Source: Harriotta raleighana (Eukaryota). From it: a DNA stretch of 64,000 nucleotides. Location: contig JBNZDD010013718.1 of assembly GCA_050575255.1 (NCBI GenBank), positions 8,238,579 to 8,302,578 on the forward strand, written 5' to 3'. The notes under the pieces were generated by a model. The model did not search any database and was not told the DNA's origin. It saw only the letters and a list, made by a program, of their open reading frames with translations. Each line of letters opens with the position of its first letter. The stretch's first letter is position 1. The position numbers were made by a program, and so were the translations under genes. This document shows, piece after piece, positions 20,484 to 56,039 of the stretch.

Positions 20484-20741
20484 TCACTTTACAAGTGAGA
20501 GACTTCGGTTCAATTCCAGGCAGAGCGAAACCTTGGGCAAATTTCCTTACTTCTTGCGCCTAATAATAAAGCATCAAACAAATAATAAATTGGTCACTTC
20601 AATCCACAACGGTTTGCGGGACATTGCTGTGTGCAATTGACTGCAGTGTTTCGCCCACGTATACTTTGCAGTATATTCTGTGAAGCGCTTTTAGACGTCT
20701 AGAAGATGTGAAAAGCTCTGTATCAAATGCAAGGATTATTA
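20464..20741 (+). mobile_element. tRNA-derived DeuSINE copy (duplicated in part at 21635-21881)
   Basis: Head gctcagtggttagag...ggttcaattcc (A/B boxes), Deu core, tail tgtgaagcgctt...tatcaaatgcaaggattatt. Confidence 0.85.
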
Positions 20742-22773
20742 CCTACATTCCTCCTGGGATCGTCAGGCTGTACACTGAGGAATCAATAACTGAATCTGAT
20801 TACTAGGAAGCGTGGATACAGCTTTGACAATGGAATTAATTTATGAAACACGTGAAAGGCTCTACACATGCAATTTGTTGTTGTTAGATGCTGCAATGGG
20901 GAATATTGCAGCGAAGCTATTCTGGAAGAATGAGATGAATTGTCTTCATCTAAACCTTCACGACCATTGCCACAACTACTACAAGAACAAATTCATTTAT
21001 ATAACATGCTTCCTGTGGAGTAACCTTTCAGGGAACTGACAGAGTCTAGCGTTTGAGGGGAACCATTAGAACTATCATTCCCCTGACAAGAAGGTTAAAT
21101 AACAGAGAGATGCCCAAAGAACTGAATTCACATTCAGTAGCACAGTCACAGTCTCCCTGGACTACAAGGTTAAGAGCTGTAAACATTGTTTATTTTAAAC
21201 AATCAAAAGCCCAATCATTCAAGACCTATCATTCAATTCCATCAATGAAATGTTGATGCATTTTTACCCTTCAAACTATAACCTACCAATGAGTAAAGGC
21301 TATTGACAATGGGAGTAAGTGGGTGGGGAGAAAGGGGGTGGGGAAAGAAGCTATTAATATAATAATAATTCTTGCGTTTGATCTAGTTTTTTCATGTCTT
21401 CTTCCATCTCAAAAGCGCTTCACAGATTATACTGTAAAGTGAATTGGCTGTGGGTGAAACTCGGCAGCCAATTGTGCACAGCAGTGTCCCACAAATAATC
21501 GTGGAGTGAAAATTACCAATTTTTTAATTGTTTATTCTTGAGGGATTATTATTAGGTGTGTGAGGTAAGGAAAGTTGCCCAAGGTTTCACCCTGCCTAGA
21601 ATCAAACCCTGGTCTCTCACTTGTAAGGCGAGTNGTGAGAGACTTCGGTTCAATTCCAGGCAGAGCGAAACCTTGGGCAAATTTCCTTACTTCTTGCGCC
21701 TAATAATAAAGCATCAAACAAATAATAAATTGGTCACTTCAATCCACAACGGTTTGCGGGACATTGCTGTGTGCAATTGACTGCAGTGTTTCGCCCACGT
21801 ATACTTTGCAGTATATTCTGTGAAGCGCTTTTAGACGTCTAGAAGATGTGAAAAGCTCTGTATCAAATGCAAGGATTATTACCTACATTCCTCCTGGGAT
21901 CGTCAGGCTGTACACTGAGGAATCAATAACTGAATCTGATTACTAGGAAGCGTGGATACAGCTTTGACAATGGAATTAATTTATGAAACACGTGAAAGGC
22001 TCTACACATGCAATTTGTTGTTGTTAGATGCTGCAATGGGGAATATTGCAGCGAAGCTATTCTGGAAGAATGAGATGAATTGTCTTCATCTAAACCTTCA
22101 CGACCATTGCCACAACTACTACAAGAACAAATTCATTTATATAACATGCTTCCTGTGGAGTAACCTTTCAGGGAACTGACAGAGTCTAGCGTTTGAGGGG
22201 AACCATTAGAACTATCATTCCCCTGACAAGAAGGTTAAATAACAGAGAGATGCCCAAAGAACTGAATTCACATTCAGTAGCACAGTCACAGTCTCCCTGG
22301 ACTACAAGGTTAAGAGCTGTAAACATTGTTTATTTTAAACAATCAAAAGCCCAATCATTCAAGACCTATCATTCAATTCCATCAATGAAATGTTGATGCA
22401 TTTTTACCCTTCAAACTATAACCTACCAATGAGTAAAGGCTATTGACAATGGGAGTAAGTGGGTGGGGAGAAAGGGGGTGGGGAAAGAAGCTATTAATAT
22501 AATAATAATTCTTGCGTTTGATCTAGTTTTTTCATGTCTTCTTCCATCTCAAAAGCGCTTCACAGATTATACTGTAAAGTGAATTGGCTGTGGGTGAAAC
22601 TCGGCAGCCAATTGTGCACAGCAGTGTCCCACAAATAATCGTGGAGTGAAAATTACCAATTTTTTAATTGTTTATTCTTGAGGGATTATTATTAGGTGTG
22701 TGAGGTAAGGAAAGTTGCCCAAGGTTTCACCCTGCCTAGAATCAAACCCTGGTCTCTCACTTGTAAGGCGAGT
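20495..22773. repeat. 1139-bp direct duplication (20495-21633 = 21635-22773) joined by a single N; probable assembly artefact
   Basis: Offset exactly 1140; no differences seen; identical ORFs at 20812/21952 and 21053/22193; N at 21634. Confidence 0.9.
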
Positions 22774-28612: not shown

Positions 28613-28741
28613 CAACAGGGGAATTTTGGCCCATCTGGATTGTTAATCACACATTTGCTCGTTGACCGGGATACCCTGGGATTTCCACTTCCCACAGACG
28701 ATCCTGTTCATTGTGGTGTGACTGTAGATACTTGTGACAAA
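28613..28741 (-). pseudogene. FAM169B: FAM169B-like exon relic 6 (129 bp, in-frame stop)
   Basis: tacag|VCHKYLQSHHNEQDRLWEVEIPGYPGQRANV*LTIQMGQNSPV|gtaagt vs ACKQYFEKYPGDHELLWEVEGVGHWYQR. TGA at 28647-28649. Confidence 0.88.
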
Positions 28742-29090
28742 CTGTAAGAGAAAGGTCCGCCCACCATCATGACTTTGAAGCATCACTTCAGGGCGAATCG
28801 CTCTCAAATACAGTGATTATGAATAAATAATTAATACCATTGCTACCAAATGAGCCACACCAGTCAATAGGCACAGCATTTGACTTGTGTTCTTTACCAA
28901 AAGCAATGACTCAGGCTGGGTGGTTCACACACTTTAACACACGTGGTCATTCTTGACATGCGAACCTAGAGAATGATTTATGAAAAGACCAATTGCAGCT
29001 CCCAACTGCTCCTCTAACTAGAATTCCTAACTCACCACAAACCAGGGGCAATTTTACCACTATGCAACGCACTAGCTAAACATTCCGTAC

Positions 29091-29273
29091 CTTTGTACAT
29101 GACTGGGGAGATAGGCTGACTGATGCCCAGTTCGTGGTCCTGAGGAAAGGTGCAAAAGAAATCGTGCAGGATTTACAACCCAAAGCCGAGTCGCTGGCAT
29201 TTCCATCTCAAAAACACTGTGTCCAACACAGACAACTGGTAACATTGGCTGGTGCAGTCATAGCACGGACTAC
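29091..29273 (-). pseudogene. FAM169B: FAM169B-like exon relic 5 (dead acceptor, in-frame stop)
   Basis: The in-phase acceptor reads cccAA| not AG; GSPCYDCTSQCYQLSVLDTVFLRWKCQRLGFGL*ILHDFFCTFPQDHELGISQPISPVMYK|gtacgg vs GSICASFLTQSYQLPVLDTMFLRKKYRGKDFGLHMLEDF...LGLRYPLSSLMY. TAA at 29173-29175. Confidence 0.9.
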
Positions 29274-29822
29274 TTGGGACACAAAGCAAAAACAGATCTT
29301 CCTAGCACATGGTTTCAGTGAAGCGCTTTGAGACGACTGGAAGACGTGAAAAACGCTACATCAAAAGGCAAGGATTATTATTTATTATTATGGTCCTTTT
29401 CATTAATATTTTCATCTTAAATGCAAGCTCTAGACATCACTTTCCTGAAATGCTCACTGATGCTAGAAATAGATTCTCCAGAACTGGTTTCCTTCCACTA
29501 AGTCGATACTATTTACCTGCTATTAAATACCGCAGAAACACTATGTTCAGTACAGTTTTTGTTTCATGCAGCAGGCCTGCCTTTCAATTTGCGTTCTTTC
29601 ATTTTGTTTGCAAACTAAATGATCTGCTTCTCCTATCCACATTATTAAACACAAGTGGGAATTTGGGCTAAGAGTAGATAGCTCCATTGGATGAGGTAGC
29701 AACATTGTGGGCTCATTGTGCCAAACTGCCTTCTCCTCTTTTGTTATTTCTATTAATCAATGATTGGTGCTCTAGTTTAGACAAGATAGTTCATATGACC
29801 CACAAAGTGACCGACCAATTAC

Positions 29823-29985
29823 CTTTCAATTTCACTATATAAAAACTAGCTGCTCCCAGAATACCTTAGCAAGTTCACTAGCAGGGTGAACAAGGAAAAG
29901 AGCATCACTAGGTGATATCTCCTGGAGCTTGTAGATTATCTGGTTTAAAATGTAAAGCATTATCCACTCCCCCAATGGATTGAAC
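29823..29985 (-). pseudogene. FAM169B: FAM169B-like exon relic 4 (two frameshifts)
   Basis: ttcag|VQSIG[+1 G]EWIMLYILNQIIYKLQEISPSDALFLVHPASELAKVFW[deletion]AASFYIVKLK|gtaatt vs VSTLGERVVLYVLNRIIYRKQE...AKILWKKGEAIGFYSVK. Confidence 0.88.
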
Positions 29986-30485
29986 CTGAAAAAAGAAAGT
30001 CCAAAACACACTCACTGAAACTGTTTTTCTCTCCACCAGCTTTCTTCTCCCCTGAACAAAACATGACTCCTTTTTCTTCCTAACGTGGTGTTTGTTTCAA
30101 GGGAAGCTGGACAAAAAGGCATTTGCAATGCATTTGGTCATACTAGCATCTCAATGAAACCTCTGGATAGTGATCAGGAGGGGGCTTACACCACAACACT
30201 GGAAATCACTGCCTCAACCTCTACTTGTCCATCTTCACATCACACGCAAAGATCTTCCTTGTCAACTGTGCTTATTGTCATCTGCCCTCTTTCCCTGGCT
30301 CAGAGTCAACTTCTACCATTGTTAAGCGCTCTGAGACACTACCCGGCATTAAAGTTGGTATATAAATGCAAGTTGTTCTTGTAATATATTCACTCTCTAA
30401 ACCAGGGCATCAAACCCCAAGTTCAATTTACTCAAGAGATTAAATTAGTTGATATTAACCCGTTTTCCCTCGGAGTGACTGTTAC

Positions 30486-30571
30486 CTGTACCAGGTTCTG
30501 TCTCGAGGGGTTGGATATTTTCGAAACATCTTCCACTGATCACCATCTTCCATTTAGGTGTAGAGCTAATA
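30486..30571 (-). pseudogene. FAM169B: FAM169B-like exon relic 3 (86 bp, in-frame stop)
   Basis: tacag|VLALHLNGRW*SVEDVSKISNPSRQNLVQ|gtaac vs AVALYLADQWWAIDDIVKTSVPSREGLKQ; TGA at 30540-30542 replaces the second W. Confidence 0.85.
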
Positions 30572-30614
30572 CTGTAGGAGAATAGTGAACGTGAATTGAG
30601 GCACAGAAACGGAA

Positions 30615-30995
30615 AGAAAGAACTTGCATTTCTAACACTTTATTGTCCCAAAACATCACCTAATGTAGTGTTGTGACTGCTATTTTAGGCAAAACAAGGT
30701 TCCACAAGCAGCTATGTGCTGAATGATTAATTAATCTGGAGGGTTATTAGCTGGGACATTAGGGCAAATGCCCTTTTCTTTTTCAATAATATTATTGGAA
30801 TTTTAATATACAACTGAACAGGCAAATGGACCTCAGTTTAATATCCTATCTGAAGACCAGGACCATCGACAATGCAGTGCTATCCCACACACACACATTG
30901 TAGTGTCAGCTCATACTCAAGTCTCAGCATCAGGTTCAAACCTACAACTTTGTTACTTAGAGGCGAGAATGCTACAAACTGAACCAAACTGACAA
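30615..30995 (-). mobile_element. Old, diverged Deu-domain SINE in a pseudogene intron
   Basis: aacttgcatt...cctcagtttaatatcctatctgaagac...gacaatgcagtgct...gtgtcagc...ttcaaacctacaac...ttagaggcgagaatgctac; related relics near 28140-28505, 34010-34410 and 41800-42170. Confidence 0.6.
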
Positions 30996-31378
30996 CCTAA
31001 ATAAGGGTCTGGAACAGTATCGAACAAACATTGAGGCAGAGGCTCGAATATAAAAACTGCACACTTCAGTCAGTGGTTGTGTGCACTGATAAATGGTTAA
31101 AACAGGAGGTGATATATAGCTCTCCTTCACCCTCTATTGGTAGATAACTGGTACTGGTACTGAGTTTAAGAATTTTTAAAAATCACTGTAGTTCTATGGC
31201 TGAAAAATCAGCTGAAGAAACTTCAGGAAAATCTTATTCAGTGCATTTTGGAAATCAATTTATTTGTTGGGAGGTTGTTCTACATGACTACTACACCATG
31301 AGGGAAAAGGTTCACTAATTCAAGTACAACTTCCAGCCATTTTGTTCTAAACCTTGTGTTATTAAACGCTGTCTGAGC

Positions 31379-31412
31379 GGTGTCCAGAGCTCATAGGTGT
31401 CCAGAGCTCATA
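31379..31412. repeat. 17-bp tandem duplication ggtgtccagagctcata x2
   Basis: Direct inspection. Confidence 0.85.
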
Positions 31413-31438
31413 GTTAGCAAAGAGTCTGCCTTACTGAC

Positions 31439-31537
31439 CTGTTTGTTCTTCTTTTGGTTGGAAGAGAATCAGCACTGCATGTTCAGAATCCTCTCTGCAC
31501 ACAGATAGAAGGATAATTATGAATTTCTGATAGGAAC
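31439..31537 (-). pseudogene. FAM169B: FAM169B-like exon relic 2 (99 bp, 1-nt deletion)
   Basis: ttccag|VPIRNS[fs]IILLSVCREDSEHAVLILFQPKEEQT|gtcagt vs IPISLSNVGFVPLYGGDQTQKILALFAPEDSLT. Confidence 0.75.
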
Positions 31538-31917
31538 CTGGAAGAACAGACACACTTCAATCACTCTGTGTTCTCTCTTCAGGTGTACTTACTACACCAT
31601 GACCCAGGAAAATCCTAAGAGCATTGGAGATCAACTAAACAGGGGTCAGTTTTGTGTTATTTCTTAAAAGGATTTCTTAATAAGAAATCCCCTAGTCTAT
31701 GATAGTTTACTCATGGGAACCCTGTTCCAACTCAATCTACTTTCGGAACAGGAAGGATTGCCTTGAGTTCTGGAAGTAAAATTGTCCCCAAATAGTCTTT
31801 AACAAGCAGACAAATTGTCATTCAAATCCATTGCTGTTTTTGGAACCTTGCCATGCTCAAATTGGATGCTGTTATATATATATATATATGTGTATATATC
31901 ACACACATACAAACTAT

Positions 31918-32286
31918 AGTCCTGTTGCATATCGGTTAGAGCACTCAGAAGCGAGAGGACCCGAATTCGATTCCCAGGCAAACTTAACCAAGTTTCCTTT
32001 ATCCACACCCATTGTTTACCTGGCAATAATAAGTAATTATTACCCCCGGAAAAACGATTCATCAATCAACTAACAACCCGGTTGTTAGTTGATTGATGGA
32101 TCGCTTTTCCGGGGGTAATAATCCCTTCCCCAAAAATAAATTTGGTTACTCAATCCACGATTGTTTGTGGGACACTGCGGTGTGCAATTGACTGCTTTGT
32201 TTTGCCCACAAAAAATATGTGGTACGCTTTGAAATGTCTCAACCATGCGATAAGGTGCTACATTAAATGCAAAGGATTACTATTAT
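31918..32286 (+). mobile_element. DeuSINE (second subfamily, gaagcgagaggac head) carrying an internal palindrome
   Basis: Same head and body as the copy at 61355-61716; Deu core at ~32160-32200; tail to ~32286. Confidence 0.85.
32036..32122. repeat. Near-perfect palindrome, 43-bp arms, 1-nt spacer, 2 mismatches
   Basis: attattacccccggaaaaacgattcatcaatcaactaacaacc-c-ggttgttagttgattgatggatcgcttttccgggggtaataat. Confidence 0.95.
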
Positions 32287-32713
32287 CATGATTAATACAG
32301 TCACTGCGCTTGACAGCAATTTCCTGGGAAGTGCTTTGAGTAATTTTAATGTTTGATAGGTGCTAATTCAAATGCAAAAATGGTGACTAATTATTAATGG
32401 CATTATTATAAAGGACTTTCAGAGAAATGTAGGGTCCAGTATAGCGGTAGAGGTAGAAACATTACACTTGCAATTCCACACACACTCTCCAGAGAGCACT
32501 ACAACACTGGGAATATTTTCTATCTGTACAGTAGCCGACACAGTAAGGTTGTGAATTCTGCAAGTTTTAAAAAAAAATTATTGGATAACTATTCCCATGG
32601 CTTTAACAAGCTTTTATTTTCAACAAATAGCAAAGCCCTACATCCCAAGAAGGTCCCAGTTCCAATTCCTGGCCTTTGCTCAGCACAATGAAAATTATAG
32701 TGTAATTAGATAC

Positions 32714-32843
32714 CTTTTCTCCTGTGGGCAAACTTAAGTATTCAGCCTCAGGACAGTCTGTGCTGCGAAGTTTGGATATATACTCCAGTGTCTCAACATA
32801 TCCTAGCTCCAGCTTGTTAAAGTATCCACTGGATAGCATGGCC
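32714..32843 (-). pseudogene. FAM169B: FAM169B-like exon relic 1
   Basis: tttag|...PCYPVDTLTSWS*DMLRH [frameshift] EYISKLRSTDCPEAEYLSLPTGEK|gtatct vs recalled FAM169A FPVDMLENCSHEELENSAEDYMSDLRCGDPENPECFSL. TAG at 32803-32805. Confidence 0.75.
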
Positions 32844-35230
32844 CTAAAAGGAATGATGAGAAAAACTAAAATAGGCAGTTACAAACCGTATAAAGAGTCA
32901 CCATTCTCTGATTAGTCTTATTAAAACAATTGCTTGGGAGTCGTATCACACTGTAATGAATAACCCGCAATAGTTTAATCATATTTCTGATATGTGCCTC
33001 GGTAAAGTGAAGAATCCCCATCTAAGAGTGTTGGCAGAGAACAACAACTTGTACATGTATAGCATATTTTAAATTTCAGATGCACGTCTAAAAATGCCTC
33101 ACAATAACGATGGGAGCAGAGAGGAGTTGGGGTGGATTTGTTGGGGGAATTTGAGGACACTAGCCTTTGGTCAAGTTTGTTTTGGAGAACAAAAAGTCAC
33201 AAAGTCAAAGAATTTTGTGAGCAAGTTCCACTGAGCATTGGCATGGTGAGTTCCCCATGTGAAGCAGTTCTGAGTTATAGTGGAAGCAGAGGGCAGTAGG
33301 GTCACCGAGTGGATCTACAGGAGAGCAATTTCTATCTGAGCCAGATGATCAAAGATGAGGGGAAATAAAACATTTCAGGAAAGGCATTTAAATCTTGAAA
33401 ACTTTTTCTTTTAAATGTGTTTTAAACTAAGGGAGTGAATGTTACGCTGAGCTTTCTCTCTCTGAGGCTTTTTTTCCCTTGTAAGGAGACTGAGGGTTCA
33501 ATAGGGAACTATAAACATTGGCCGTTATATCAGTGTTACAGTAACTAAGTTTGATGCCTAGTGGGGAAGCCTAGTGGTATACAAGATCTGGCATACATCT
33601 GCAAAATATATAACATATAGTATACATCACTAAGTACTTCAATGAGCAAAACAGAAGCCAAGGCCGGAATGCTTTCATACGTGTTCCTGTGTAAATTTCA
33701 TTCATGGCCAGGTTAGAATTACAGCTGAGGAAGGCAAACAAATGGGGATACTGTCTCTTCAAAATTATACCTGGGAGGCCAAGGGATTCTTGACATTCCC
33801 ACAGTAACATTCCTCAGATGCTGAGAGGCAGCCATCTTAAAACAGTCTTTTGTCCTAAGCATCATAACACCAGGGCTTACTTATTCGCAAGTGGTTGCAT
33901 TGGGAAATACGATCAAGGTAAAGTTTCTTCAAAAAAAATCCTCAAATTGTCAATCAGGTTGGGCTCTCTATCCTGAGCTGTCAATCGCAGCGCTGGGCTA
34001 CAGCAATATTAAAATGCAAGTTAATTGTCAAATTTGATGTAGCACATTATCACATTGACAAAACATCTCAAAGTGCTTCACAGGATATAGGGTAAAATGG
34101 TGACTTTACTTTGTAGGCAAACACTGCAGCTAATTTGCATATAGGGATATCCAACAAACATTAATTAAGTGTTTAGATGTTATTTAGAGATTGTTGGCCA
34201 GGATATGCAAGAAACTCATCTTCAATTGTGCACATGGGATCATTAACATCCCCCTGAACAGGCAGACATGACTCCAGTTTAACATTTCATCTGAAGGACA
34301 GCATCTCTGACAATGTAGTAGTGTTGCATTAGTGACAGCCTTGACTATCAATTAAAAAATCCCAATTTGTGATTTGAACTGACAAACGTTTGACTTGAGA
34401 TGCAAAAATGATATTTGAAGATGTTTATTTTGCGAGAAAGGAACTGCACTGTGAACTCGCAACTGGTCCTACTATGCACCTATTACCAGGGATCGAGCCT
34501 GCTGTGGCTCCAAACCGTAATGTTTAGAAAGATCGATGGTGGGGAGATAATGTTTGATTGCTGGTGATTGGGTGCAGATGCATCCAGTAATTGCCAATCA
34601 AGTGGTACAACTTGCACTTATATAGCACCCTCCACGCAGGGTTAGCAGTAGTTAACAATGGCCTGACTCTGAGCCAGGGTGGGAAGAGGTGGGCGTACAC
34701 ACGGTCGATGAGGAAGGGACTTCAGGCAGTAGATTTACAGTAGTGCAATAATGGGCATGTAATCAAGTTTTCTTGGCATTAGTGAAGGTGCTGATATATG
34801 TGTCTGCTCTCTGGCAGCTTACAGCAGGAGGGAAGTATCTGTGTTCCACGGCAGCCCAGCGCTGAATACACACTCCTGTTGTCTCTGCCAGTGTAATGAA
34901 GGACAGGCTCCCTGTTGGGGAAGCTCAAGTTCTTGTCAGCATTTTTAGGCATTGAGCCATAAGAATGCCTGATTTGAGGATTGCAAGGCTGAAAATCATG
35001 AGTTAAAATAAGCTCCTTTCCTGCAACCTCTTTCGATCCAATACCATCATGAGAGTTGTGCCCATCATCATGCTGTGTGTGAACAGGGTTTGTGAATTGG
35101 AAAGCTTCCTTAATGGCTCAGGTGGAATTGTTGTAAGTTCAATCCATGGTCTGTATGGCGTTAGCCTGAACCCAGCTGAGGTAGGAGTTGGCCCAGTGCC
35201 TCTGTGAGAGGGGGAAGCATTTTGCAGTGA

Positions 35231-35454
35231 TCTTTCCTTTGGATCATTATCCATTGACTTGCTGTGGATGTGTGTGGGTGGGTGTGGGTGAATTCACTGG
35301 TGTGATGGGTAAAGAACAGGATCAAGCTCAGCTGGGAACCTCCTTTGNTCTTTCCTTTGGATCATTATCCATTGACTTGCTGTGGATGTGTGTGGGTGAA
35401 TTCACTGGTGTGATGGGTAAAGAACAGGATCAAGCTAGCTGGGAACCTCCTTTT
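35231..35454. repeat. ~110-bp near-duplicate (35231-35347 vs 35349-35454) bounded by single Ns; probable assembly/haplotype artefact
   Basis: Ns at 35348 and 35455; the copies differ mainly by a 10-bp indel (ggtgtgggtg) and a 1-bp indel. Confidence 0.8.
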
Positions 35455-38104
35455 NCCAATTGCTGGCACTTACTGTTGAGCCTAACTAACACTTGGGAGA
35501 AGGTTGGGTAGAGTAGCAGACAGCAGCTGTCAGCGGGAAATATTACCCCAGAACATGCCAACGCTTTTTAAGAAACAAGGGTAAAAACTGGAGGAAAGGG
35601 GTTGAGGGAATCTTAGCAGTGATGAAGTTTCAAAGTTGAAAGTAAAAAATGTACTTTTTTAAATTTAAAAACATGTCTGTTCTAATGTCTAAAGCTTAGT
35701 GTGCAACAAAGAATGTGAAAAAAACCTCTCGTATCAATTTAAACACTCACTCATCATAAATATAAATCAAAACTAATTGAGACAAGTTACACTGCTGAAA
35801 GCAGCAAACCCAACAATATATTCTCGGGTAACTTCACACTCTCGAGCAGTTACTACTTGCGGGAGTCGTAAAATTCTGTAAGTTTTCGTTTTGTGATACT
35901 CACGTTTTACAAGACAGACCATCAGGAGAGTGACATCTAAGGTGTTGGGAGGGGGGCGGGGGGTGGTGGGGAGGGCGGAGAGACAGGGAGCACTGAGGTT
36001 ACAATAGTGAATAGCTCAGAGCAAATTCAACTGTTTTTCAGGTGTCACACACAAACTGCTGGTGGGGGAAGAATTTTCTTTCTCAATGTGTACTTGTTAT
36101 TCTAATCTTCTCTCCAATCTAGCAGCACACGGTTTCAATTCCCCCAGATTTGGGTTACCAGATACCCGGTGTGTCACTGTATGTGAACCAACATCAAACC
36201 TGCTTAGAAATGTCTCTTTAATCCCTTACCTTGCTCACACTGCTCTCTGCTACCTTCCATCTTGTGTTCTCATTTCCTCTTGTTGCTCCTCCTCCTCCTT
36301 ACATTGCCCTTAAGCTGGCCAGCTACCCAATATTTAAGTGTAGACAGAACTTCTAAACATCGCATTGTAATTAAGTATCAAAGCATGAAATACAACAAAA
36401 TAATCCCAAAATCAATCACCTTAAAATCCATTATTAGAATAGTTAAAATATTTTTAATAATATTAAAATGTTTTGTTGTTTAGACACTCTTCTTCGACAG
36501 TGTCTTTGTTCACCCTTTTAGGGATACTACTTTCCCTGTCCTCCATCTCTCCTGATTTCAATCACTAGCCCGGGTGTGGATTCTTCGCTGTCCAGCGCCT
36601 TGGGATGCCTCCTGACATGAAAGTCACTATACAAATGTCATTTGTTGTTGTTTTTACACTTTTACCTGGTTGTGATGGCGAGGCTGTTGGAGGGGGTGCT
36701 TTCCCTACCCTAATTGTTTCACCAACTTTCCTCAATTCCACAGGCGGTGACCCACCCCTTCTCTCACTCAAACCCCTCAACTGATTTCTCATAAACGGCT
36801 TTCTGGGACAGTGAAGCCCAGATTCCTCTCAACTCTGTGGGAAGAAATTCTCACTCATTTCAGTCCTGACCTATGGCCTAATTTAAAGGTTGTATCTTCA
36901 TCACCGATTGAACTAGCACCAGCAAGCAGTCAGTGCTCGCTGTTTATTTTGTCCATACCTCTTCATGATCTAAATGAGATCTACTTGTATGGATCCAATT
37001 TTCATTACATTTTGATTTCTTTTAAGATTTTCACACACCATAGTACGGTGTGGTTTGTTAAGACAACGCTTTTGTCTGTTTTCCTGTTTTTAAAGGGAGT
37101 TTTTTCTCTTCCCTCATGTTGATTTTTGCTACTGAAGAGATAGCGTTGCAGCTGGAGACAAGGGTTTGAGCTTCAGTAGAAAGCCCGCCCTGTTCTCTTC
37201 GGAAGCTGTTTACTCTCTCAAACACCACCCCAGGCATTGTTTTGTCTTTCTGGTCAACCACCTGATAGAACAGGTCTACTTTGAGGTTCCTGCTGCCAAA
37301 CAGGATTGAAAGAACATAGCTGAGATTTAGCTTGAGGGCATGTCCTTTAAATATTGAATTGGCTTCAACAAAAACAATTATTTGATGCACTTAACTCTTT
37401 TTGACCTAATCGTTTTCCAATAGATTTTTGTTGAAAATTTCAACACCTACTCTCCAATTATTATCTGTGTCTGTCAAATACATAACTTACATCTTTAATC
37501 TTTGTATCAGTAAAAGATTATTAGCAATTTACAAACCCCCATGGCTTCTTTTTAACCTGTTTCTTCCTTCCTCTGTTGGAAGTGCCAACTCACCCTGGGG
37601 TACAAGTTCCAGGGATACTGGGAGCCGATTGGTTCCTTGCCAAACTAGATATTCTTCCCCTGTCTAGCCAGTAACTGTCAACAAGGTATGTGATCATGGA
37701 GATTGATGGGAGGAGGCATCTGGATTAATTCTGGGTTTGTCTTTATTCTATATGTGAAATTGCCATGTTTCCCATTATCGTTGACTGGAGATCTACTTAT
37801 TTTAAGGTACAACATTTAGGAAATAATTTGGGCACCCACACTGATCTCTTATAAATGTCTGCAGACAAGAAGTAAACCAAAAGTTAAAACTATTGGGATT
37901 TTTACATCTATTGTGTTTTTTAGTCTCCCCAGTGCTTGGCCTCCTGAAGGTGTTTTGGCTTCTTTTTTTCCTTTCACTGCAACAATTACTTGCATTTATA
38001 TAGCACTTTTAAGCTAGACGGTAGTGTCTCGGAATGCTTAACAGTGGCTTAACACTATCCCTGGAATTTATATCCCAGGGCAAGTTGGCACTTCCAAAAG
38101 AAGA

Positions 38105-38630
38105 AAACAACAACAAATTGTATTTATATAGAGCCCTTCATGTCAGGACAACATCCCATGGGCTGGATATTCAAGCATTTGCAACCAAGCTGGGGGATGA
38201 ATTCAAGAGATGAGGGTAATTTGCCAATGTGTGATGGAGATGCTGAGTTTGTATGGGAATACCAGCAGCAGTTTTGAATCGGTAGGATTTTAATGGTTGG
38301 TGGAGCTGGGAAGACCAGCAAGAGGGAAATGGAAAAAATGGTGACGATTCAATGAATAAGGATTTCAGCTGCATTGGGTGTTAGGCATGGTCAGAGACGG
38401 GCAATGTGGAGAGGATAACGGTCCTGGTCGGGGACCAGATGTGCCCAGGTTGCATACAGGTTCAATGAATTTGAGGGATAGGCTGGAAAGACTAAGGAAG
38501 TCAAAGTCACAGGTGAGAAGCTGTTGACGGGAGCCGAGGAGGATGGTTTTCCTCTTGTCAACACTGGGATATAGTTCTGCAGGTTGCCCACTGGCTCCTT
38601 GCCCAAGTGGCCGTTATTTACGTGCAAGCT
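38105..38630 (-). mobile_element. Degraded L2-clade LINE 3' fragment
   Basis: Minus strand ends ...gacatgaagggctctatataaatacaatttgttgttg, preceded by decayed RT C-terminal-like sequence. Confidence 0.55.
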
Positions 38631-40059
38631 TTACAGTGCTGACAGCAGCTGGTGCATAGTTTCCTATCATTTATATACTTAACTCAAAGCAGCATTTGCT
38701 GGGCAAAACATTTCTGCTATTCATTAACCCAAAGCAGAAAAATAACTCTCAGGTATAGGTACTCTGCACGACACTGTTACATCATAGTTGTAGAGCTATC
38801 TAGCAGTCATAGTGCAAAGAAGCAGTAAGTGAACAAGGCATCCACATAACTATGTTTAGATACGGCAAAGGCATCTTGTCAGACTTCCCGTTGGGGCTCC
38901 AAACATTAGACACTGGACATTCCTGGCTTATCTTATTGGAATGATCAGAAGTGAATACAAAACAATTACATGTCGATAGCCGCAAAGCACACTATTCTGA
39001 ACATACATCTGTGAAATTATTTTGGGATACATTTCCTTAGTTACCTTTGTACCTTTGTAATTCTATGTCCCTTATCTATCAAGAGCACAGTGGCAAGATG
39101 TAATAGAAAACCGGTGTCATTGACAAACCTTGTTGAGTATTACGCTTACAGTGGAAAGAATAGCAAGCAATTATACAGCAGAGGATGGAACTGGAGGCAG
39201 TAACGGTCTCTCTGCTCCAAACCCGCTGTGGAGTGGAGTCTTTATATGCATTTGGTTTTATAATAATAACAAGGTGAAGTTTATTGGAAGAGAAAGAGCT
39301 CATTGAGACAAAGTATATTAGAGCTAAGAATGGAACTGCAGCTTTAGCAGATATTGAATATGCCTTTAAAATAAAACAAAGCATCCAATAGGAAGCTAAT
39401 CAGAATCTTATTAACAAGCAAAAGTTCATTCGGTCCTTTTCTAAGGATTACATTTATCGTTTTTTTTGTAGTGTAAACAGCATAACTGCGGAGAAATCGA
39501 CCCAGACTTCTCTTAATTCATTATTTACACAGCAACCCCAGGCCCTTCAGCAGTGACTGGTGTCAAAGATTGACTGAACTGCTGCAAAAACAGTGTTGGA
39601 CACCCAGCAACATACATACAATCCCAGTGTTGGAAAAATCCCATGGTGATAAATAATAATACTATTACATACGGTACATTTCATACAGTGCCTTTTATAT
39701 CAGGAGGACATTGCTAAGAATTTCAAAGGAAACAGTGTAAAGCGGAGTGCATATGTAGTTTGTGGGTGAACATGGCAGCCAATTTACACACAGCAATGTC
39801 CCACAAATCGTTGTGAAGTGAATGACCAATTTGACTGAGGGAGGTTTGGCCAGGACACTTGTGAGACTCCCGTTTCTTTTCAAATAATGCCATAAGTCTT
39901 TAACAGCTTTTCAGAGGGTCAAAGATAATTCCATCATAGGGAAACCATATAGTTAAACAGGTTTAATATAACTTGAGGGAGACACCGGACAGAACACTAA
40001 CTTGCAATATAGCATATTTTTTGTAATAATGAGCAGAGGGGGCGGGCAGGTTGGTGGGC

Positions 40060-40810
40060 GTTAGGTCGCAGAGGTAGGGTAGGACAAGACCATGGAGTTT
40101 AAATGTGAGGACCAGGTTCTTGAATTGAATTCTTTGAGTGATGGAGAGCCAATGGAGTTGGGCGAGATGGGGTCACGAAGCTTGGAGCGGTAGAGGATAT
40201 GGGCTGCAGAATTCTGTATTATCTGCAGCCTATGGAGGGAGGAATTGGGAAGGCTTTTGCAAAGTGAGTCTGGGTGTGATGAAGGCATGAATGAGGGTTT
40301 CTGTGACCCGAGAGGTGAGGTAGTTGTGGAGCCGGGCAATATTGCAGAGGTGAGCGAAGGTAGAGTGAGTCACGGCTGAGATGTGAAGGAGGAAAGACAG
40401 TTAAGGATTGAACAAGACACCTAGGTTCTTGATTGTTGAGGTTGGGTGTGCAATCATGAGATTGATGCTGCCAGTGCCTGAGGTGTGAAGGCGCTGGCAA
40501 GAGCCAATCAGGAGGGCCTCGGTCTTGTTGACATTCAACTGTAGAAAGCTAGCTCTCATCCAGGACTTGATGTCTGACAAGCAATCTAACAGGACAGCAG
40601 CAGTCCTGGAGTCAAGGGTAGAGACAGAAAGATACGAGTTGGATGTCATCCGCATACATATGAAAGTCGACCCCATGTCTGCGGGTGATGTCGCCAAGGA
40701 TGTAGATATTAAAATGTAGGGGGCCACGAAGAGAGCCCTGGGGGACGTAACAGGTGACAGTGTAGGGGCTGGAAAAGAAGCCATTGATGGCGACAAAGTG
40801 GAGACTTACT
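40060..40810 (-). mobile_element. L2-clade LINE reverse-transcriptase fragment (frameshifted)
   Basis: Overlapping ORFs give VPQGSLRGPLHFNIY, FHMYADDIQL, CLSDIKSWMRASFLQLNVNKTEALLIG, KNLGVLF, LHRLQIIQNSAAHIL. Confidence 0.92.
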
Positions 40811-42612
40811 ACCTCCAGCAGTAAGTACCATATTCTTACCTTATTCTCTGTGGGGAAAAAAAAAATCCGCATAATCACCAATATTTCAAATTGGAAAGAG
40901 TTGAATTTCCATGGCAGGACTGCTTCAGCGAAGATTGAAATATTCAAACATGTGGATCTTAATGCACTGTTTAAAAAAACATTCTAACTTATTTTTTTTA
41001 GAAAAAGCATTAGATGGATGATCTCATTGTACTGATTTATGGGTTACTGACGGTCTGCCAAGGGCTACAATCCCAAGTGGGTTCTTGCTCAAAGACTGTG
41101 CATTTACACTCAAAACTCATATCATTCCCAGTGGGTAATGAACAAGAATAACATGGGTACCTTTAGTTGAGTTTGATGGCATCATTCCACTTGTTGTACA
41201 GATACCAAAACAAAGCTACCTCTGATAGCATTCTCTGATTGCTTTATAAACCTCATTGGCCAGCATAATAGGAGAATAGTGTTGAATCTCATCTCTAGCA
41301 ACTTCCACATCCTAAAAATAAGGGCCCAGAAACATACGAAGATGCAAGAATGCTGATAGCCAAGTGAGGATCACAGAAATCACCATTTTGCTTGAGGCAC
41401 ACTGTTAAATACTATGTTTATCTTCAATGAATAGATATTACCCTAAATAAAAATATATAAAAAGTCGTAGAAAACACTCCAATCACTTGAGTTTTGATAA
41501 TTTAGTAAAAAATCTCTCCATTTTCTGAGAAGAGTTTAACCTAAGTGGCTTTCTGAGGAAAACTAAACCATTGATTCAGGCACAAGTGTCAAATTCTACA
41601 TTTAAATCTGAATCCTGTACTAAATTCCTGATATATTAATTCAGAATAAGATCATATCTGTATAGTTTTACCAATTCAGAAGCCAGGCTTAAGACTAGGG
41701 CTACAGATGCAATTACTGAAACTCAATCCATTCTCTCTGCCATTTATAACATTATAGACACCTTGAAATTAAGTTCAATTCTACATTTTATGAAAGGAAC
41801 TTTTAGATTTTTATAGTGCCTTATCATGCCACAACATCTCATGTACATTTTAGTTTTTTTATATAGTCTAATGTTTCCTAATTATTGTCAAGTGTTTTGT
41901 GAATACATGTGGAAGCCACTTTGTACACTACAAAATTCCAGTCATGAGTAATTTTATCTGAAGGATCATTGGCCAGCATAGGAGGTAAATCACCCTTCCG
42001 TTTTCAGGTAATATCGTGGGATAGTTTACATCCGTCAGAACAGGAAGAATATCTCATGCAAACAATGGTATTTCTGACAATCCAATACTGCCTCAGTACT
42101 ATACTGGAGATTCAACATAAACGGAACTTAAATCCAGATTTGGGTCTTGAACCCTTAGCAACACATTTAAGATTTTAATGCAACTATATTTTTCTTTGAT
42201 TTGCATCTACTCTACAATATAGTCTAAGCATCCTAAACTGAGCTCCATTGATAACCATTGGTAACGTACATTCCATCAGCTTTCAAGAGTCAATCTACTT
42301 TTGAATCCAGCAGGTAAGGACAATCCTAGAAAAACAGAAATATTGCAGTTAATATGCCACGTTTTCATTGGAACTATTGAGGTGTTATCTGCTCAAAGTT
42401 CCCAAACTTTGATCATTGATCGAAAACCATAGAGAGAAAATTTTCCCTCAGTACATAAATCAACAGTAAAGTGAAAATTTGGCTCTGGTTCAAAGTCCTG
42501 GCCAGAAAAGTCAGAATCCTGACATGTTTATTTATCTCTCCTCTGCAACACTCTGAAGCCAAGGCCCAAAAAAGAGACAAACACATCAGATCAGGGTTTT
42601 TTGCATACAGAT

Positions 42613-42618
42613 TTTATT
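42613..42618 (-). promoter_or_regulatory. IGF1R: IGF1R distal poly(A) signal
   Basis: Minus strand TTTAAGTTAAATAAAATCTGTATGCA. The block 42602-42900 closely resembles the recalled end of human IGF1R mRNA (GTATATTCTGTTGTAAGAATTTATTCCTGTTATT; GGCTGAAGCTAAGGCAAC; TTTTTTCTAGTA). Confidence 0.85.
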
Positions 42619-44793
42619 TAACTTAAATCTTGTACTGTAACTACTAGAAAAAAGCCGAGTAAGAAGAAACTAAAGTTGCCTTAGCTTCAGCCGATCAAAA
42701 TAGACAAGTTTTTTTTTTATTTTTTTCTCCTTTTTTTCTCTAATGGAAAGAATCCATAATATATCGAAATAACAGGAATAAATTCTTACAACAGAATATA
42801 CAAAACATTTGAAGTTTTTTTTCTCTTTACTACTGAATCAAATTTCCATATAAACACAGGAATTGTATGAATAATTTACACACAGCAAGTCTTTTTTTGT
42901 ACCTAACAAATTGTCCATCTTTACTGCTTAATCTTTTTTATTTCATAGATAAGATGACTGGGGGTGAAAACAAAACAAAAAAAACATACCTGTGATACGT
43001 TCTAAAGCTTTTATTTTGCCCTCCCAGAGTTAGCAGCAATCTCCGGCCAGTTTCTCTCTCATTAATTTTGTGTCTGTCGTGTGCTGTACAATAGTGTTTT
43101 GAACAATCATACAAAGAAACTAACCAGGCAGGTCCAACAATGCGAGGGCTGGTGCAAATACAGAGCTTGTAATGCAATCTCCTGCTGAATGTACCAGTTT
43201 TGTGAGGTGCATCCAATTTATAGAAAAACTACCGCTCTCCCACCCCATCTCCCCCCCCCCACCCCAACCCCAAAGAATACATTTATACTCACTTCCAAGC
43301 AATTTCCATTTAGCATTCCGATAATATTCCAGTACATTCTCGAAACAATTCTTCTACATAATTAAGGGCCTTTACTTAGAACTCTCAGTTCTCCTCTAAA
43401 CTGAGTGAACTGCTCAGCTAGCTCTGTTTCTGAACCGGTTCCATACTGGAATATATACTTCTTGTATCCCTACACTTCCATCAGGCATTCCCAAATGGTT
43501 CTGGAAAACCAATCTGTCCATCTACTTCTGAAAACTAAGGCTGTTTATATCAAAGAACCAAATGTCCAACATCCAATGCTGTGTTATTCCAGCTGCACTC
43601 AACAGTCACTGATAATAGTTACACAGATATGCCATCACTTTTGAGTCCTCACCATGTCTTCTGTCTCTTTTGACTTGTGATCATTTATTCCCAAATTTGG
43701 ATTGAATTCATCAGACCTCTAAATTTTCAAATGAATGAAGCTCCAATGAGGCACTAGATCTGAAAAATTTCATTTGCATTTTCACCTGTGTCCATTATTT
43801 CACCTATCCTCAATCCAAAGTTCATGTGGATCCCACATTCTCTTGCAGCCAATCTGAATGGTTGTATTTCTGCTGGAACTGTCCACAACTAGCCAATGTC
43901 AACAACCCAATCTGATTTCAAAACTTAACAGAATGTGTGCAATGATATCCTCAGTGTTGTTAGGACTTGGAGATTGGGTTCCAGATCTTGCTGGAATAAG
44001 TGGAACATGTGACCTGTAGATTACTTGAACAGTTGCTACACATGGCACTCAATAATTGTGTGAGTGAAATTTAACAAAAGTATTCCCTATTTCCAAGTTT
44101 AAGTAATTGAGTGGACTTGGAGGGCAGTGGGCTTTGGGCAACTCATCTCACCAGCTCCATATCATTTGATGCCGAATACTGAGTTGCACGGATGGCACTT
44201 ATGATGACATCTGCGGGACAGTCCATAATGGCTGACATTTTCAGTGTTAGAGAAGCTGAGAAGACAGAAAGTGAGGGCCAGGGCACAACATTTTTTGGTA
44301 CAATGAATTCCAGTCAAATATCTGGAATTAATTACACACAAGAATAGCACAGCAACCAATTAACTGAAAACATTTCCTCCACCACTTGATAGTTCCAATT
44401 TGTTCTGGTTTTGACACATATTTTATCTCCTCAAATCCTGTGGCAGTTCTATTATTAACGTCAAACAGACTAACAGCATATATGGTATTCTTAAACAATG
44501 CAGCTTACGAATGGATTGGTTTTCTTAACCATGCTAGAAGTTACCTAAATCCATACCTTTTGTCGGCCTAAAACAATTTGCCTTTTTAAAAATTCCTTGC
44601 TACAAAAAAAAAGAACAATCCTATCTTCTAAGCAACATTCTCCAGGGTTTTTTCATCACACATTTGGTGTTTTCCTAGAATCCCAATATTAATTCTCAAA
44701 TGCAATTTTGTAACAAATTAATTGTAAAATGGGTGGGGAGGAAGAAAGAGAGTAGTGGTCATTTGCTAAGCTGTTCATGTCACCAACTAGTTA

Positions 44794-44838
44794 AAGGTCA
44801 TGTCCCACTGGAAGGTCATGTCCCACTGGAAGCTCATG
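44794..44838. repeat. 18-bp tandem repeat aaggtcatgtcccactgg x2.5
   Basis: Direct inspection. Confidence 0.8.
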
Positions 44839-47800
44839 GGCAGGATGATCTACCTAGGGAAACCATTGTACTGTAGATTCATTTGTAAAATTCCATTTTG
44901 TGGGAACCTTACTTCTACTAACTCTAGAAAATTGGCTCAATGTGAGATTGAATCTAAACATGATTGCTATGGCCTCGGGATCTGGAATAATTGTGCCCCA
45001 CATATTGGAAAACCAATTGTTTGTCTCAAGTGCACAAACTAATTTCAAGACAGGACTAGCTGAGGCCTCAATGTCACTTGCATCTGTCTACAACATTAGT
45101 GTTGTTTGTGAGAATTGTGGCAGGATCACAAGTCAGATGATGCAGCTCCAACATAAATGCCCAAAGGTAACGGGGAGATAATCTATAGCCTATGTGTATT
45201 TCTGAGTCTCAGATTTCTTCACGGAATAGTACTTCCACCTAAATGTCAGACTCATTAAAGTATGGAATGCAGTAGATATTAAAGGAAAGCATATTTAAAT
45301 GCACAGATTAAACCCGAGTTCCAACAAGAGCTGCTATCTATGGAGCAGCTAAATTGTGAGGTTAACCCTATGTAGACAATGATATCTTTGTGTCACAGCT
45401 AAGAACAGCAGCTCTCACTTCCTCAGACGTTTATTGAAATCAGTGCCATGGTCCATGTAATTCTGTAGTTTTTCTTTGTTGCATTAAGTGATGCTGATGT
45501 GTTAAAGAACACAATATTAGAAATTAAAAAGGAAAGTGACTTTAGGAAGATAGTCTGAAGTCTTTAAACCAATTGAATGATCCACTGAATTCAATGCTAT
45601 GTTAATTAATTTGTACAAATCCAGATGTTATTTTTTCAGTGAAGTTATCCACTCTAACTTCAGTCTCTGCTTGCGGTGTGGCAGAGGGGTCTGGGGAGGT
45701 GGGTTCATGTGAATATGTGTGACAGGGACAAGCTAGCAGTTACACTGACAGCTACCCTCAAAGGGTGAAACAGCAAATCTTTCCTTTCGGCTAAAATCTC
45801 AAACCAATTTAGATCTTTGGAGATAATTTTTTAAAAACCTAATTGAAATATTTGCTCATCATTTAACCAGCTTCCACGACATAGCCAACAACAAATGAAT
45901 CCACCACAGACTTGAAAGAGATTCAACCCAAAACGTTGGACCACAAGCCATTGTGTTTCCCCCTTAAGATTATTTTCTACAAGGAAAAATGCTCAAAATA
46001 ATGGGCGGCACAGCACGTCAGCTCATGACAAATACGTCAGTTTTGGTTAACGCTGGATGGATTCATGCAGACAGATGAGCGAGATCAGAGACAGAATTCA
46101 CCACTTTCTCAACAAGCACGCATACAAAAGCTAGCGCGAGCCTCCACAAGCAAAATGCATCCTTAGCTATCAATAGAGAATGTCCCCTTGCAAAATTGTC
46201 ACTGAGGAACTCAAATGATGATATTATCAAAAACAAATATGATATTAACAGCTTAGCAACAGACTGGCAGTAGACCAGCTTGCCTGCGTGCTACTTATTT
46301 GAACCTGACAGCAGCTTTTGAGAATGCCCGGGTTTATACAAGGAAGTGATGCATACGATTGATGCTGAATAGACAATGCACATAAGAGAACAGCCAACCT
46401 TATAATTAATTGAGGCAATCTTAAACATGCCACATGGGCCTGCCCGAGACCTGCATTTCTAGAACACAAGCAGCTTCTGAAAATACTGGATTGTGCATGT
46501 CTGCTGCAAGGACCCACGTTAGATTTTAGATTGGGTTTGTTCATGGCTTGCTTGTCCCTCCCCAATACACACTATGTACAAATAAAGTCAGCCAACAAAT
46601 GGGACACGGTCCCTTTAAACCATTACCAACAAGCCCAATACCCTTCTCAAAGTCAGTTGTAGGACAGCATTCGAGTGAAATGCATTTCAATGATCTGTAC
46701 AGACGCTAAGATGGTCACAATATTGTTAAGTTTTTTTTCCCGTTTTTTGTATTTTTTTTCCTTTTTTTAAAATACAGATTCCATCTATTGACGATACTGT
46801 AATCTGGACAGTTTAGCAAACATTCGTAGACAGCTTGTGTGATCTGAGCAGCTCTGGTTGTAGAAATGAATATGTGCGATTCAGAGGAAGGGATTGCTAG
46901 TTCAGGAGGTCACCATTGATTTAAAAACAGCAAAATAAATCAGACCCAGAAAAGACCTGTGTTTTGCGGTCAGCTATGATGCAACAACTTTGGCAACCAA
47001 TTTGGAGACTCAATACATAAGCAATGATCAAATGTGATAGAAACAGCCCAGATATCATATCTATACCCCTCTGATCTTTGGCTCTTAATGGGCTAATCCT
47101 AACCTTATTTTTTTACTCCGTATGTCAAAAGCAATCGTGATAAAAAAAATTAACATTAAAAAGAGCCTGATTGAGCACTGTGTCAAAGGCAGCAGTGGTA
47201 AGACAGCAAAGACCCCCAGAGCTATTTAGCTTACTCAACTGGGTGATTAATGCACATGGAGCAATGAGCTACTCGGCTTGAAATTTAGTTTCCAACTAAT
47301 CAAAAACTTTGGCTTTGTTTCTACTTCTGGGATGTCTAACAGAGAGGGTGAATTCCCAGGAAGGAACCCTTGCACTAGCTAGGTGACACTGACCAACACA
47401 GTTGACATCGTTGCGTGTTGTTGCTGTTTCACTTTGCAAGATTTTCAGGCCAAACACCAACAAATTACCCTCCCATTTGTCTAACAGATGTTTAGGAAGT
47501 GCTTATTGGGAGCCAACACCAAATTTCTCCATTGGAAGAGGGAGGGAGTTTTACTTGCTTTGGAATGCTTTTTACAACAAACGCGTTTGCATCTCGTCAA
47601 CCTTGAGGGGTAGAAAATTAAGCTCCTCAATTAGTTATTCTGCAGCTTTTTCAAATATTGTATGGTTTTAGGCTTCACCCTCATTAAACCGCAATAGCCA
47701 AAACTATTCACCAAGTAAACTTAATATACCTGCAGCCTAGCTGTACATATGACCCATCAAGTAGCTCTTAAGCTCTTTATTAGTTCATCAAGTCTTGGAA

Positions 47801-48929
47801 TTGGCTATCCAAACTATATGTGAATTACGGAAGTTTTTAGTTGTAATGCTTGATGGAATTTCTCAGGTGGGGGGGGCTGGGATCTGCTGATGCTCTCACA
47901 CAGGAACAACGAGATTTCAATTGTCAAAAGACAATTAGGCATCTTCTAGAAACTGAAAGAAAAGGTGAAGTTTGCCTGTACTTTCCTTAAATTTATAACC
48001 GTAGATCTTAATAATACAAAGCACAAGGTTTCATAGCATAAGAATCACCCAGTTGCAAAGGCTTCAGCTCTCAGGGATAGGGATGGGGCTAGACTTCTAA
48101 ACCTTACTATTGAATCAATCCGGCTGGTCAACCATCAACAATCATTTGGTTGAGTATTTGCCTGGCAAGATCAACTCCAGGAACAGACTGTTTTACCTTT
48201 TCCAAAGAGTAAAGTGCTGTACTTCACTGACATGATTGAGCCTATCCATCAGTGCTTTTCTGTAGATATTTCTGCACATTACTTTAAATTGATTTATTTA
48301 GTCATTTACCTGGTCCTTGATGGATATGCATAGGAGGCAGTTACCATTGACATCATTGAAAAGCCAGTGGAGTATCCACTGTACCCTGTGGGTTAGAGGG
48401 TGAATAAGCACACATGACTATCAAATACAAATGGAGGTGCCATTAGCTGTTCTGGGGTGTTTTGACACAATCTTGGAAAATTATTGGTTTCTTTCCATTC
48501 TTGTAAGTTAGGAGGGATATTTTTTCAAAACTACAATAAACTGGCATTGAATTCCCTACTAGTACTCCTGCCCCCACCACCTCTAGCAAAATCAAACCAG
48601 CAATGATATTTGTAAGTCCACTATTTCAATTAGTTGATATGGAAACTGTGGCTCACTTTCTCCACCATCCGCTCATTGAGCAGCCCCATTCATAAAAGTC
48701 TCCAGTGATTAATCTGGGCAATTTAGTCTCTAAGCACCAAACGTTTGTTTGGGGGTGATCTTGTATTTTCAGCTGGTGAACCTGGGTGGAATGAGCAACC
48801 TTTCCCTCTGCGAGGACATTGTGTTGTGGTTCTGTGAATTGTGGAGGTTTCCAGGATACTGTACTGTCTCTCAGACTGTTGAATGTGAGATGTATTTTAT
48901 ATATAATATATATAAAAAAATTAAAAGAG

Positions 48930-48937
48930 TGAGGTAG
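48930..48937 (-). promoter_or_regulatory. let-7 8mer target site (CTACCTCA)
   Basis: Plus strand tgaggtag; context GCATTTATCTACCTCACTC on the mRNA strand. Confidence 0.75.
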
Positions 48938-51584: not shown

Positions 51585-51591
51585 TGAGGTA
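51585..51591 (-). promoter_or_regulatory. let-7 7mer-A1 target site (TACCTCA)
   Basis: ~45 nt after the stop codon, within CTGTACCTCAGTGGATC. Confidence 0.7.
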
Positions 51592-51634
51592 CAGTAGGTT
51601 TTGTATTGTATTACTTTCGCCTTTTTCTGGAGGA

Positions 51635-51995
51635 TCAGCAGACCGTTGACTGGGGCAAAGGCAACGCTCTCTCGTTCTTCCTCCCCCCGTTCATATGAGC
51701 GTACGGCTGCCTCTCTTCGAAGCTGGAACGGAGGACAACACCTGGTCCATTTTCCAATTTGTGTCCTGAATGCTTGTCAGAGTTTTGGATTGTAGATGAG
51801 GGGTCTAGAGGAATGCTTTCCATGTTTTCGGCCTCAATCTCAAAATCGCTTTCATGGGGTTTATAATCTTCGCTGTAGAAGAATGAGACCTCCTTGAAAG
51901 AGGCGTCCAGGTCATCTTTAATGCTCTCAATGATTTCCGTGAAGGAAGGACGCATCTTGGGATTATATTGCCAGCACAGCCGCATGAGATCAAAC
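51635..51995 (-). CDS. IGF1R: IGF1R terminal coding exon (human exon 21 equivalent)
   Basis: cttag|[19 protein letters not shown]...[26 protein letters not shown]; the C-tail is diagnostic of IGF1R rather than INSR. Confidence 0.98.
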
Positions 51996-55683: not shown

Positions 55684-55742
55684 GTCTCTCTCGCTCTCTC
55701 TCACACATATATATACATACACACACACCACACACACACACA
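55684..55742. repeat. (CT)/(AT)/(CA) compound microsatellite
   Basis: Direct inspection; a longer CA-rich tract lies at ~62940-63120. Confidence 0.8.
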
Positions 55743-55904
55743 AAATCAGTAGAAAGTGGAAGATGTGATAAGGCGCTATACCAAACGCAAGGATTATTAA
55801 TATTACTCGAGACCAGCAAACGCAGCAAGGATCAAAGTTCAATCCACTTGCTCACCGGCCGAAGTTAGAACAACATTTTGGAAATAAATATCCGAGCAAC
55901 TTAC

Positions 55905-56039
55905 AGGCTGTCAGGGCAATTGTCTGGTCGCTCCAGTAACCCCCCCTCCATCACAAAACGCAGGACCTGCTCGTTTGACATGCCCTGGTATGGCTGCTCC
56001 ACCAAAGTGGCAATCTCCCACAGCACCACTCCGAACGAC
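55905..56039 (-). CDS. IGF1R: IGF1R exon 20 equivalent (135 bp)
   Basis: ttcag|[45 protein letters not shown]|gtaagt. Confidence 0.97.

Follow-up and report, generated by a model that had tools for sequence, protein, structure and literature searches.

Does the DNA that lies downstream of an insulin-receptor-family gene in the chimaera Harriotta raleighana hold the remains of FAM169B, and are these the remains of the genome's own copy, inactivated where it stood? The window analysed here is the whole 64,000-nucleotide stretch at positions 8,238,579 to 8,302,578 of the forward strand of contig JBNZDD010013718.1 (assembly GCA_050575255.1), and all positions below are counted from its first letter. 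A sequence-only reading had proposed that six minus-strand segments at 28613–32843 make up a dead FAM169B-like gene. We conclude, with a probability of roughly 85%, that the genome's own FAM169B was inactivated in place and persists as a unitary, non-processed pseudogene (hereafter the fossil), in a holocephalan other than Callorhinchus milii.

The fossil has the structure of a spliced gene. A 57-residue piece of it (with X at the stop) matched both of the two candidate proteins, which are FAM169B of C. milii (XP_007906546.1, 353 amino acids; P0355, P0002, P0003), at 81% identity. Searching the window with C. milii FAM169B (tblastn) gave seven exons on the minus strand, from 36260 down to 28613. 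Six are the segments proposed earlier, in the place and order given for them, with E-values of 5e-28 to 3e-6 (queries P0002 or P0003). The seventh, which had been missed, is the ATG exon (exon 1, 36230–36260, 31 nucleotides), which has a GT donor and is without a lesion; eight of its ten residues are identical to C. milii, and its score of 44 compares with a mean of 27 and a maximum of 31 for shuffled sequence. In frameshift-aware alignment, exon 2 scored 158 (shuffled maximum 54) and exon 3 scored 109 (shuffled maximum 48), and 211 of 265 sense codons were identical to those of C. milii isoform X1 (P0355, residues 1–279). None of the six fossil exon pieces, submitted singly to Pfam, gave a match. 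GT is present at all seven donors and AG at five of the six internal acceptors, which agrees with the mostly intact splice ends described before. With six introns present, GT donors throughout and an IGF1R-type gene adjoining it, the fossil is non-processed.

The open C. milii gene ends in a 74-residue tail, and the last coding exon that would encode this tail was not found in the window. The best score was 48, against 40 for shuffled sequence (standard deviation 4, maximum 50), while the true exons 2, 3 and 1 served as controls with the scores given above; this best candidate sits at 54321, inside the IGF1R-type gene. The exon may have been deleted, may have diverged, or may be hidden at a single N at 21634. 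That N, which could hide sequence, lies between two identical 1139-base copies (20495–22773), which are probably an unmerged scaffold overlap. Intron 1 of the fossil has two more single Ns, at 35348 and 35455; they fall within a short stretch (35230–35500) that is duplicated almost exactly, probably as an assembly artefact.

Ten lesions fall in six of the seven exons: five stops, four frameshifts and one broken acceptor. Exon 2 (32714–32843) has a TAG stop at 32805–32803 and a 7-nucleotide deletion at about 32790–32786. Exon 3 (31439–31537) has a TAA stop at 31519–31517, the frame of which hinges on the placement of a nearby 1-nucleotide deletion at about 31510, and exon 4 (30486–30571) has a TGA stop at 30542–30540. 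In exon 5 (29823–29985), where the predicted GNAT domain starts, one extra G lies within a G run at about 29976–29972 and 10 nucleotides are deleted at about 29856–29852. Exon 6 (29091–29273) is preceded by AA at 29275–29274 in place of an AG acceptor, with an AG one base downstream and a 1-nucleotide deletion as an equally good reading, and contains a TAA stop at 29175–29173. Exon 7 (28613–28741) retains its GT donor and has a TGA stop at 28649–28647. From exon 2 to exon 7, the five stops replace residues that read Trp, Ser, Trp, Gln and Trp in C. milii. Translation of the spliced fossil terminates at codon 24; among the ATG frames that remain in the joined exons, the longest has 72 residues. 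The four in-frame stops reported in the sequence-only reading (32803, 30540, 29173 and 28647) are present as TAG, TGA, TAA and TGA, as are the frameshifts, put at four or more, and the AG-to-AA acceptor; the best alignment adds the exon 3 stop as a fifth. Its statement that every exon is dead is true of the six exons it listed and not of exon 1. Because G-to-A changes account for the broken acceptor and for the three stops at Trp codons, rescue by adenosine-to-inosine editing was considered; it was rejected, since it would leave four frameshifts and two TAA stops in place.

Could an intact gene have acquired these lesions through errors of assembly or sequencing? The assembly is draft-like, with three single Ns, one of them between the two identical 1139-base copies, and an extra G in a G run is the kind of lesion that would fit this explanation. 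We compared the window with contigs of three low-depth public DNA runs (X1–X3), which all come from one study, represent three of four contig sets, have a contig depth of 2–6, and possibly include the window's own source. The comparison rests on 24 listed pieces of 17,383, and on a list of differences that is short of 43 rows. Five of the ten lesions are reproduced by contigs that show zero differences from the window or a single difference placed elsewhere. Both exon 2 lesions are in record 16 of X2 (sole difference at 32766), alongside record 8 of X1 (no differences); both exon 5 frameshifts, the extra G included, are covered by record 21 of X3 (no differences, no gaps), and the exon 5 deletion also by record 2 of X1; the exon 7 stop is in record 9 of X2 and record 17 of X3 (no differences). 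Three further lesions are crossed, again with no gap, by contigs that carry one or two unplaced differences: the exon 4 stop by record 4 of X1 and record 23 of X3 (two and one, respectively), and the exon 6 acceptor and stop by record 19 of X3 (one). The two exon 3 lesions are bridged by none of the listed contigs.

Over the 24 pieces together, just 20 of 6,035 letters (0.33%) depart from the window, and among the rows listed none reverts a lesion. A raw-read run (X5, one of three such runs) gave 0–2× over the exons. The IGF1R-type exons in the same window have open frames. Because contigs of three runs reproduce half of the lesions, with the extra G and both multi-base deletions among them, and span three more without gaps, the lesions are no assembly error; they are real wherever they were tested, and an explanation by error is largely refuted already and very improbable. 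The single difference in the X2 contig, T for C on the plus strand at 32766, amounts to an Arg/His difference at a CpG in exon 2. The introns of the fossil also hold short repeats of very high copy number (29314–29380 and 32075–32290), where contig depth reaches about 200,000 compared to 2–6 in unique sequence; one of these repeats begins about 40 bases before the exon 6 acceptor.

The family of the fossil is clear from its nearest relatives. Among 338 fetched family proteins, the closest is C. milii FAM169B (75%, counting X) and the next is that of Heterodontus (52%). FAM169A proteins are 34–42% identical to the fossil and form a clade apart from FAM169B. A search for FAM169A listed at least 120 proteins, those with species names being birds; chondrichthyan FAM169A was retrieved separately. 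A 26-row tree, which took in Narcine, coelacanth, bichir, ostrich and teleost FAM169A together with lamprey, hagfish, amphioxus and acorn worm, joined the fossil to C. milii FAM169B with support of 100/100 and placed this pair inside FAM169B (92/93; chondrichthyan FAM169B 95/90; FAM169A 95/93). The same sister pair was found in trees of 31 and 138 rows, and the two genes are collinear over seven exons. The fossil is FAM169B, not FAM169A, and the orthologue of C. milii FAM169B, as the FAM169B-like identity first put forward had implied. In the 26-row tree, the lamprey and hagfish FAM169 rows were placed with FAM169A (98/95). This would hint at a split between FAM169A and FAM169B that is older than the cyclostome split, but long branches make the placement unsure.

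Annotated, intact FAM169B is on record in seven cartilaginous-fish genera (C. milii, Heterodontus, Scyliorhinus, Hemiscyllium, Mobula, Leucoraja and Pristis). FAM169B does predate the split between cartilaginous and bony fishes, as the sequence-only reading had it. As an inference from the fossil, however, that claim was overstated: it is not new, and it needs no fossil because intact annotated proteins are already known in sharks, rays and the elephant shark.

How far, and for how long, has the gene decayed? Selection was compared at the protein level only. Fossil and C. milii differ at 54 amino acids, of which 25 polarise to the fossil and 15 to C. milii, with 14 undecided (p = 0.15; polarity set by 15 outgroups). 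The 15 changes on the C. milii branch also make it probable that the animal is no close congener of C. milii. Nine changes fall to the fossil and two to C. milii in the 98 columns that are conserved, with stops excluded (p = 0.065), and in the 26-row tree the branch lengths are 0.20 and 0.085, respectively. The excess of changes in the fossil fits relaxed selection; it is not significant alone, and the lesions carry the case. The ratio of observed to expected CpG is 0.32 in the fossil exons and 0.33 in the window, compared to 0.57–0.72 in three approximate IGF1R stretches, and R125W, R199W and R202Q fit decay at CpG. Two of three examples of such decay named earlier, EWI and LRW, are Arg-to-Trp changes that polarise to the fossil; the third, NQI, is present in intact C. 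milii FAM169B and has to be dropped.

Stops make up 5.5–5.7% of neutral changes in these codons, and the five stops therefore imply about 0.11 substitutions per site (interval 0.035–0.26). The amino-acid excess implies about 0.03–0.045 substitutions per site, assuming a ratio of non-synonymous to synonymous rates (dN/dS) of 0.2–0.3 while the gene was functional. Either estimate exceeds the divergence of the runs from the window by a factor of ten or more. If the animal is a chimaerid or rhinochimaerid, so that it parted from C. milii about 187 million years back, the figure given for Chimaera phantasma (PMC12952989), the loss would date very roughly to 35–110 million years ago, a range that rests on the assumed dN/dS. 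Selection on FAM169B would have ceased once the lineage had parted from Callorhinchus, leaving the exons to decay neutrally by some 0.03–0.1 substitutions per site, so that the gene has probably been dead for tens of millions of years, as a rough figure.

The same decay estimates bear on whether the locus, its coding role gone, still yields a spliced transcript and acts as a non-coding RNA or a regulator of IGF1R, a role that would preserve exon 1 and the splice sites. No RNA data set was listed as containing the stretch, which says nothing about expression. The absence of lesions from exon 1 and the retention of GT at 7/7 donors and AG at 5/6 internal acceptors are in keeping with such a role, and in mouse a long intergenic non-coding RNA lies between Igf1r and Fam169b (PMC4263710). 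However, exon 1 offers just 31 coding bases in which a lesion could fall, and the one change seen in 26 invariant splice bases is close to the 1–3 that neutral decay of 0.03–0.1 would predict. As the CpG content of the fossil is also at background, we consider a retained RNA role quite improbable.

The neighbours of the fossil indicate whether it occupies the ancestral site. Upstream of it and on the same strand, an insulin-receptor-family gene is represented by its 3′ kinase exons (51635–62114, minus strand; PK_Tyr_Ser-Thr in 4/4 pieces), which run from 51635 upward, about 15 kb from exon 1. With synteny as a guide, we take this gene to be IGF1R rather than INSR. The fossil therefore lies downstream of an IGF1R-type gene and on its strand, which bears out the mouse-like arrangement that had been suggested, if mouse Fam169b is, as we presume, co-directional with Igf1r. 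The reported mouse order is Igf1r upstream, then a long intergenic non-coding RNA and then Fam169b (PMC4263710). In human, by contrast, FAM169B is listed upstream of IGF1R, in the order ARRDC4, FAM169B, IGF1R, PGPEP1L, SYNM (PMC6238305, PMC6201857). The orders given for chicken and pig are ARRDC4, FAM169B, IGF1R, SYNM (PMC12937304, where the function of FAM169B is called unclear) and FAM169B, PGPEP1L, IGF1R, SYNM (PMC12265383).

Between the IGF1R-type gene and the fossil (36300–51600) there was no PGPEP1L-type Pfam or motif match, and PGPEP1L may be absent from, or lost at, this locus too. Pfam matches to a peptidase or arrestin were likewise absent from 18 read-through frames of 33000–51700 (plus strand) and from 123 non-kinase open reading frames, searches in which short exons can be missed. 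On the far side, tail to tail with the fossil, is an open terminal exon of an SH2 adaptor (4873–5059, plus strand; Pfam SH2 E 0.0032; atlas SH2 clusters 0.91–0.96), which is presumably SHF/SHB-like; a motif scan of 1–6000 did not find its upstream exon. A reverse-transcriptase fragment lies at 40615–40983 (minus strand; RVT_1 E 8.5e-6), and 59674–60434 resembles it by eye. Both are decayed copies of the long interspersed nuclear element type.

A dead copy beside IGF1R could also be a duplicate, with an intact FAM169B at work elsewhere, in which case the gene has relocated and has not been lost. The search was confined to the window, where no last coding exon came to light, and an SH2 adaptor as the far neighbour, not the ARRDC4 of tetrapods, suggests that the region may be rearranged. 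Yet it is the dead copy that occupies the IGF1R-linked site. Exon bins are no deeper than intron bins and no intact codons appear among the contigs listed, which counts weakly against a second copy, given that only sequences at least 90% alike were placed and that depth is no copy number. We regard duplication as unlikely.

Several of these results weigh against the inactivation of a unitary FAM169B in place. Without the stops, the asymmetry of rates is not significant, either over all differences (25 versus 15) or in the conserved columns, and the two estimates of decay (0.03–0.045 and 0.11) differ about threefold. Two of the ten lesions are unbridged, three are on contigs with unplaced differences, and X1–X3 amount to one study. 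The neighbourhood is unlike that of tetrapods, in its missing PGPEP1L match and in the SH2-adaptor exon that stands where tetrapods list ARRDC4. Finally, the evidence on copies comes from the window and the contigs of the locus, and a second intact copy elsewhere in the genome was not searched for. The probability given at the outset takes these points into account.

What kind of protein would have been lost? Modelled with AlphaFold2 on 60 aligned sequences (predicted local distance difference test score 76.6), intact C. milii FAM169B has a folded part that reaches about residue 265, and beyond residue 270 it is disordered. Foldseek matches to the model are led by HAT1 (E 5.5e-5) and alpha-tubulin acetyltransferase (E 3.2e-4). 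With residues 106–272, VIA-align gave a best Z of 10.9 (root-mean-square deviation 3.1 over 123 residues) to generic GNATs, and Z of at least 8 for 150 of 48,161 chains, without setting GNAT subfamilies apart. Pfam matches of intact proteins to GNAT were sub-threshold only (E 0.14 and 0.22), and a family-profile sequence search of solved structures gave three matches at E 0.1, none of them credible. Intact FAM169B thus models as a GNAT acetyltransferase fold, and the fold shows no function. The protein also has a motif-A-like Arg-x-x-Gly-x-Gly stretch, in which the Arg and first Gly are conserved in at least 90% of 60 rows, and which presumably has the role of motif A. In this stretch, just before the exon 6 stop, the fossil alters V197 (invariant in 60/60 rows) and R202 (conserved in at least 90%), its substitutions in the stretch being V197L, R199W, Y201C and R202Q.

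A putative GCN5-related acetyltransferase domain was already noted for the paralogue FAM169A/SLAP, at residues 120–230 (PMC10958201), and matches the predicted FAM169B fold. FAM169A, or SLAP75, is a lamin-associated protein of the nuclear envelope (PMC10958201, PMC3308701); although of the same family, it has a much longer tail than FAM169B and belongs to a separate clade. The lost product would have had about 350 residues, with a GNAT acetyltransferase fold followed by a disordered tail. FAM169B may have been an acetyltransferase and redundant with FAM169A/SLAP, and this paralogue may have made it dispensable.

Comparable losses are known in chimaeras. Opn5m, TMT1 and TMT2 are pseudogenes in Chimaera phantasma (PMC12952989), and TLR15 is a pseudogene in Harriotta raleighana and Hydrolagus affinis (PMC9808068). 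Like FAM169B, these genes remain whole in C. milii while stops or frameshifts disrupt them in another chimaera; unlike FAM169B, for which no role is known, they serve in sensing or immunity. FAM169 is not mentioned in the main text of PMC12952989. We found no published report of FAM169B loss in a chimaera, in a search that left out most subscription journals and supplementary gene-loss tables. The loss looks like an ordinary lineage-specific one that is apparently unreported.

Human FAM169B is, we assume, a pseudogene as well, which would make it a second loss of this gene in place. It is not called one in passages of PMC5714351, PMC6201857 and PMC4847873, and FAM169B proteins of lemurs and New World monkeys are on record. 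A wider scenario, which we offer tentatively and with more doubt than belief, is that FAM169B, an ancient GNAT-fold paralogue kept across jawed vertebrates, was lost at least twice independently, in a chimaera tens of millions of years ago and in human. The first blow in the chimaera would perhaps have been a rearrangement or deletion that took the last exon and left the SH2 adaptor facing the remainder. If this is true, shared lesions would mark the chimaera clade, and the lineage would be a natural knockout for a candidate enzyme.

Since FAM169B lacks a known function that could be tied to a trait, its loss does not open up a question of long standing. It does add a probable gene loss, of a kind that annotation pipelines would skip, to holocephalan evolution, and its ten lesions provide a cheap clade marker. 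It also shows that C. milii is no proxy for chimaeras as a whole. Should the human loss be borne out, FAM169B would have proved dispensable repeatedly, which would narrow ideas about its role and its redundancy with FAM169A/SLAP.

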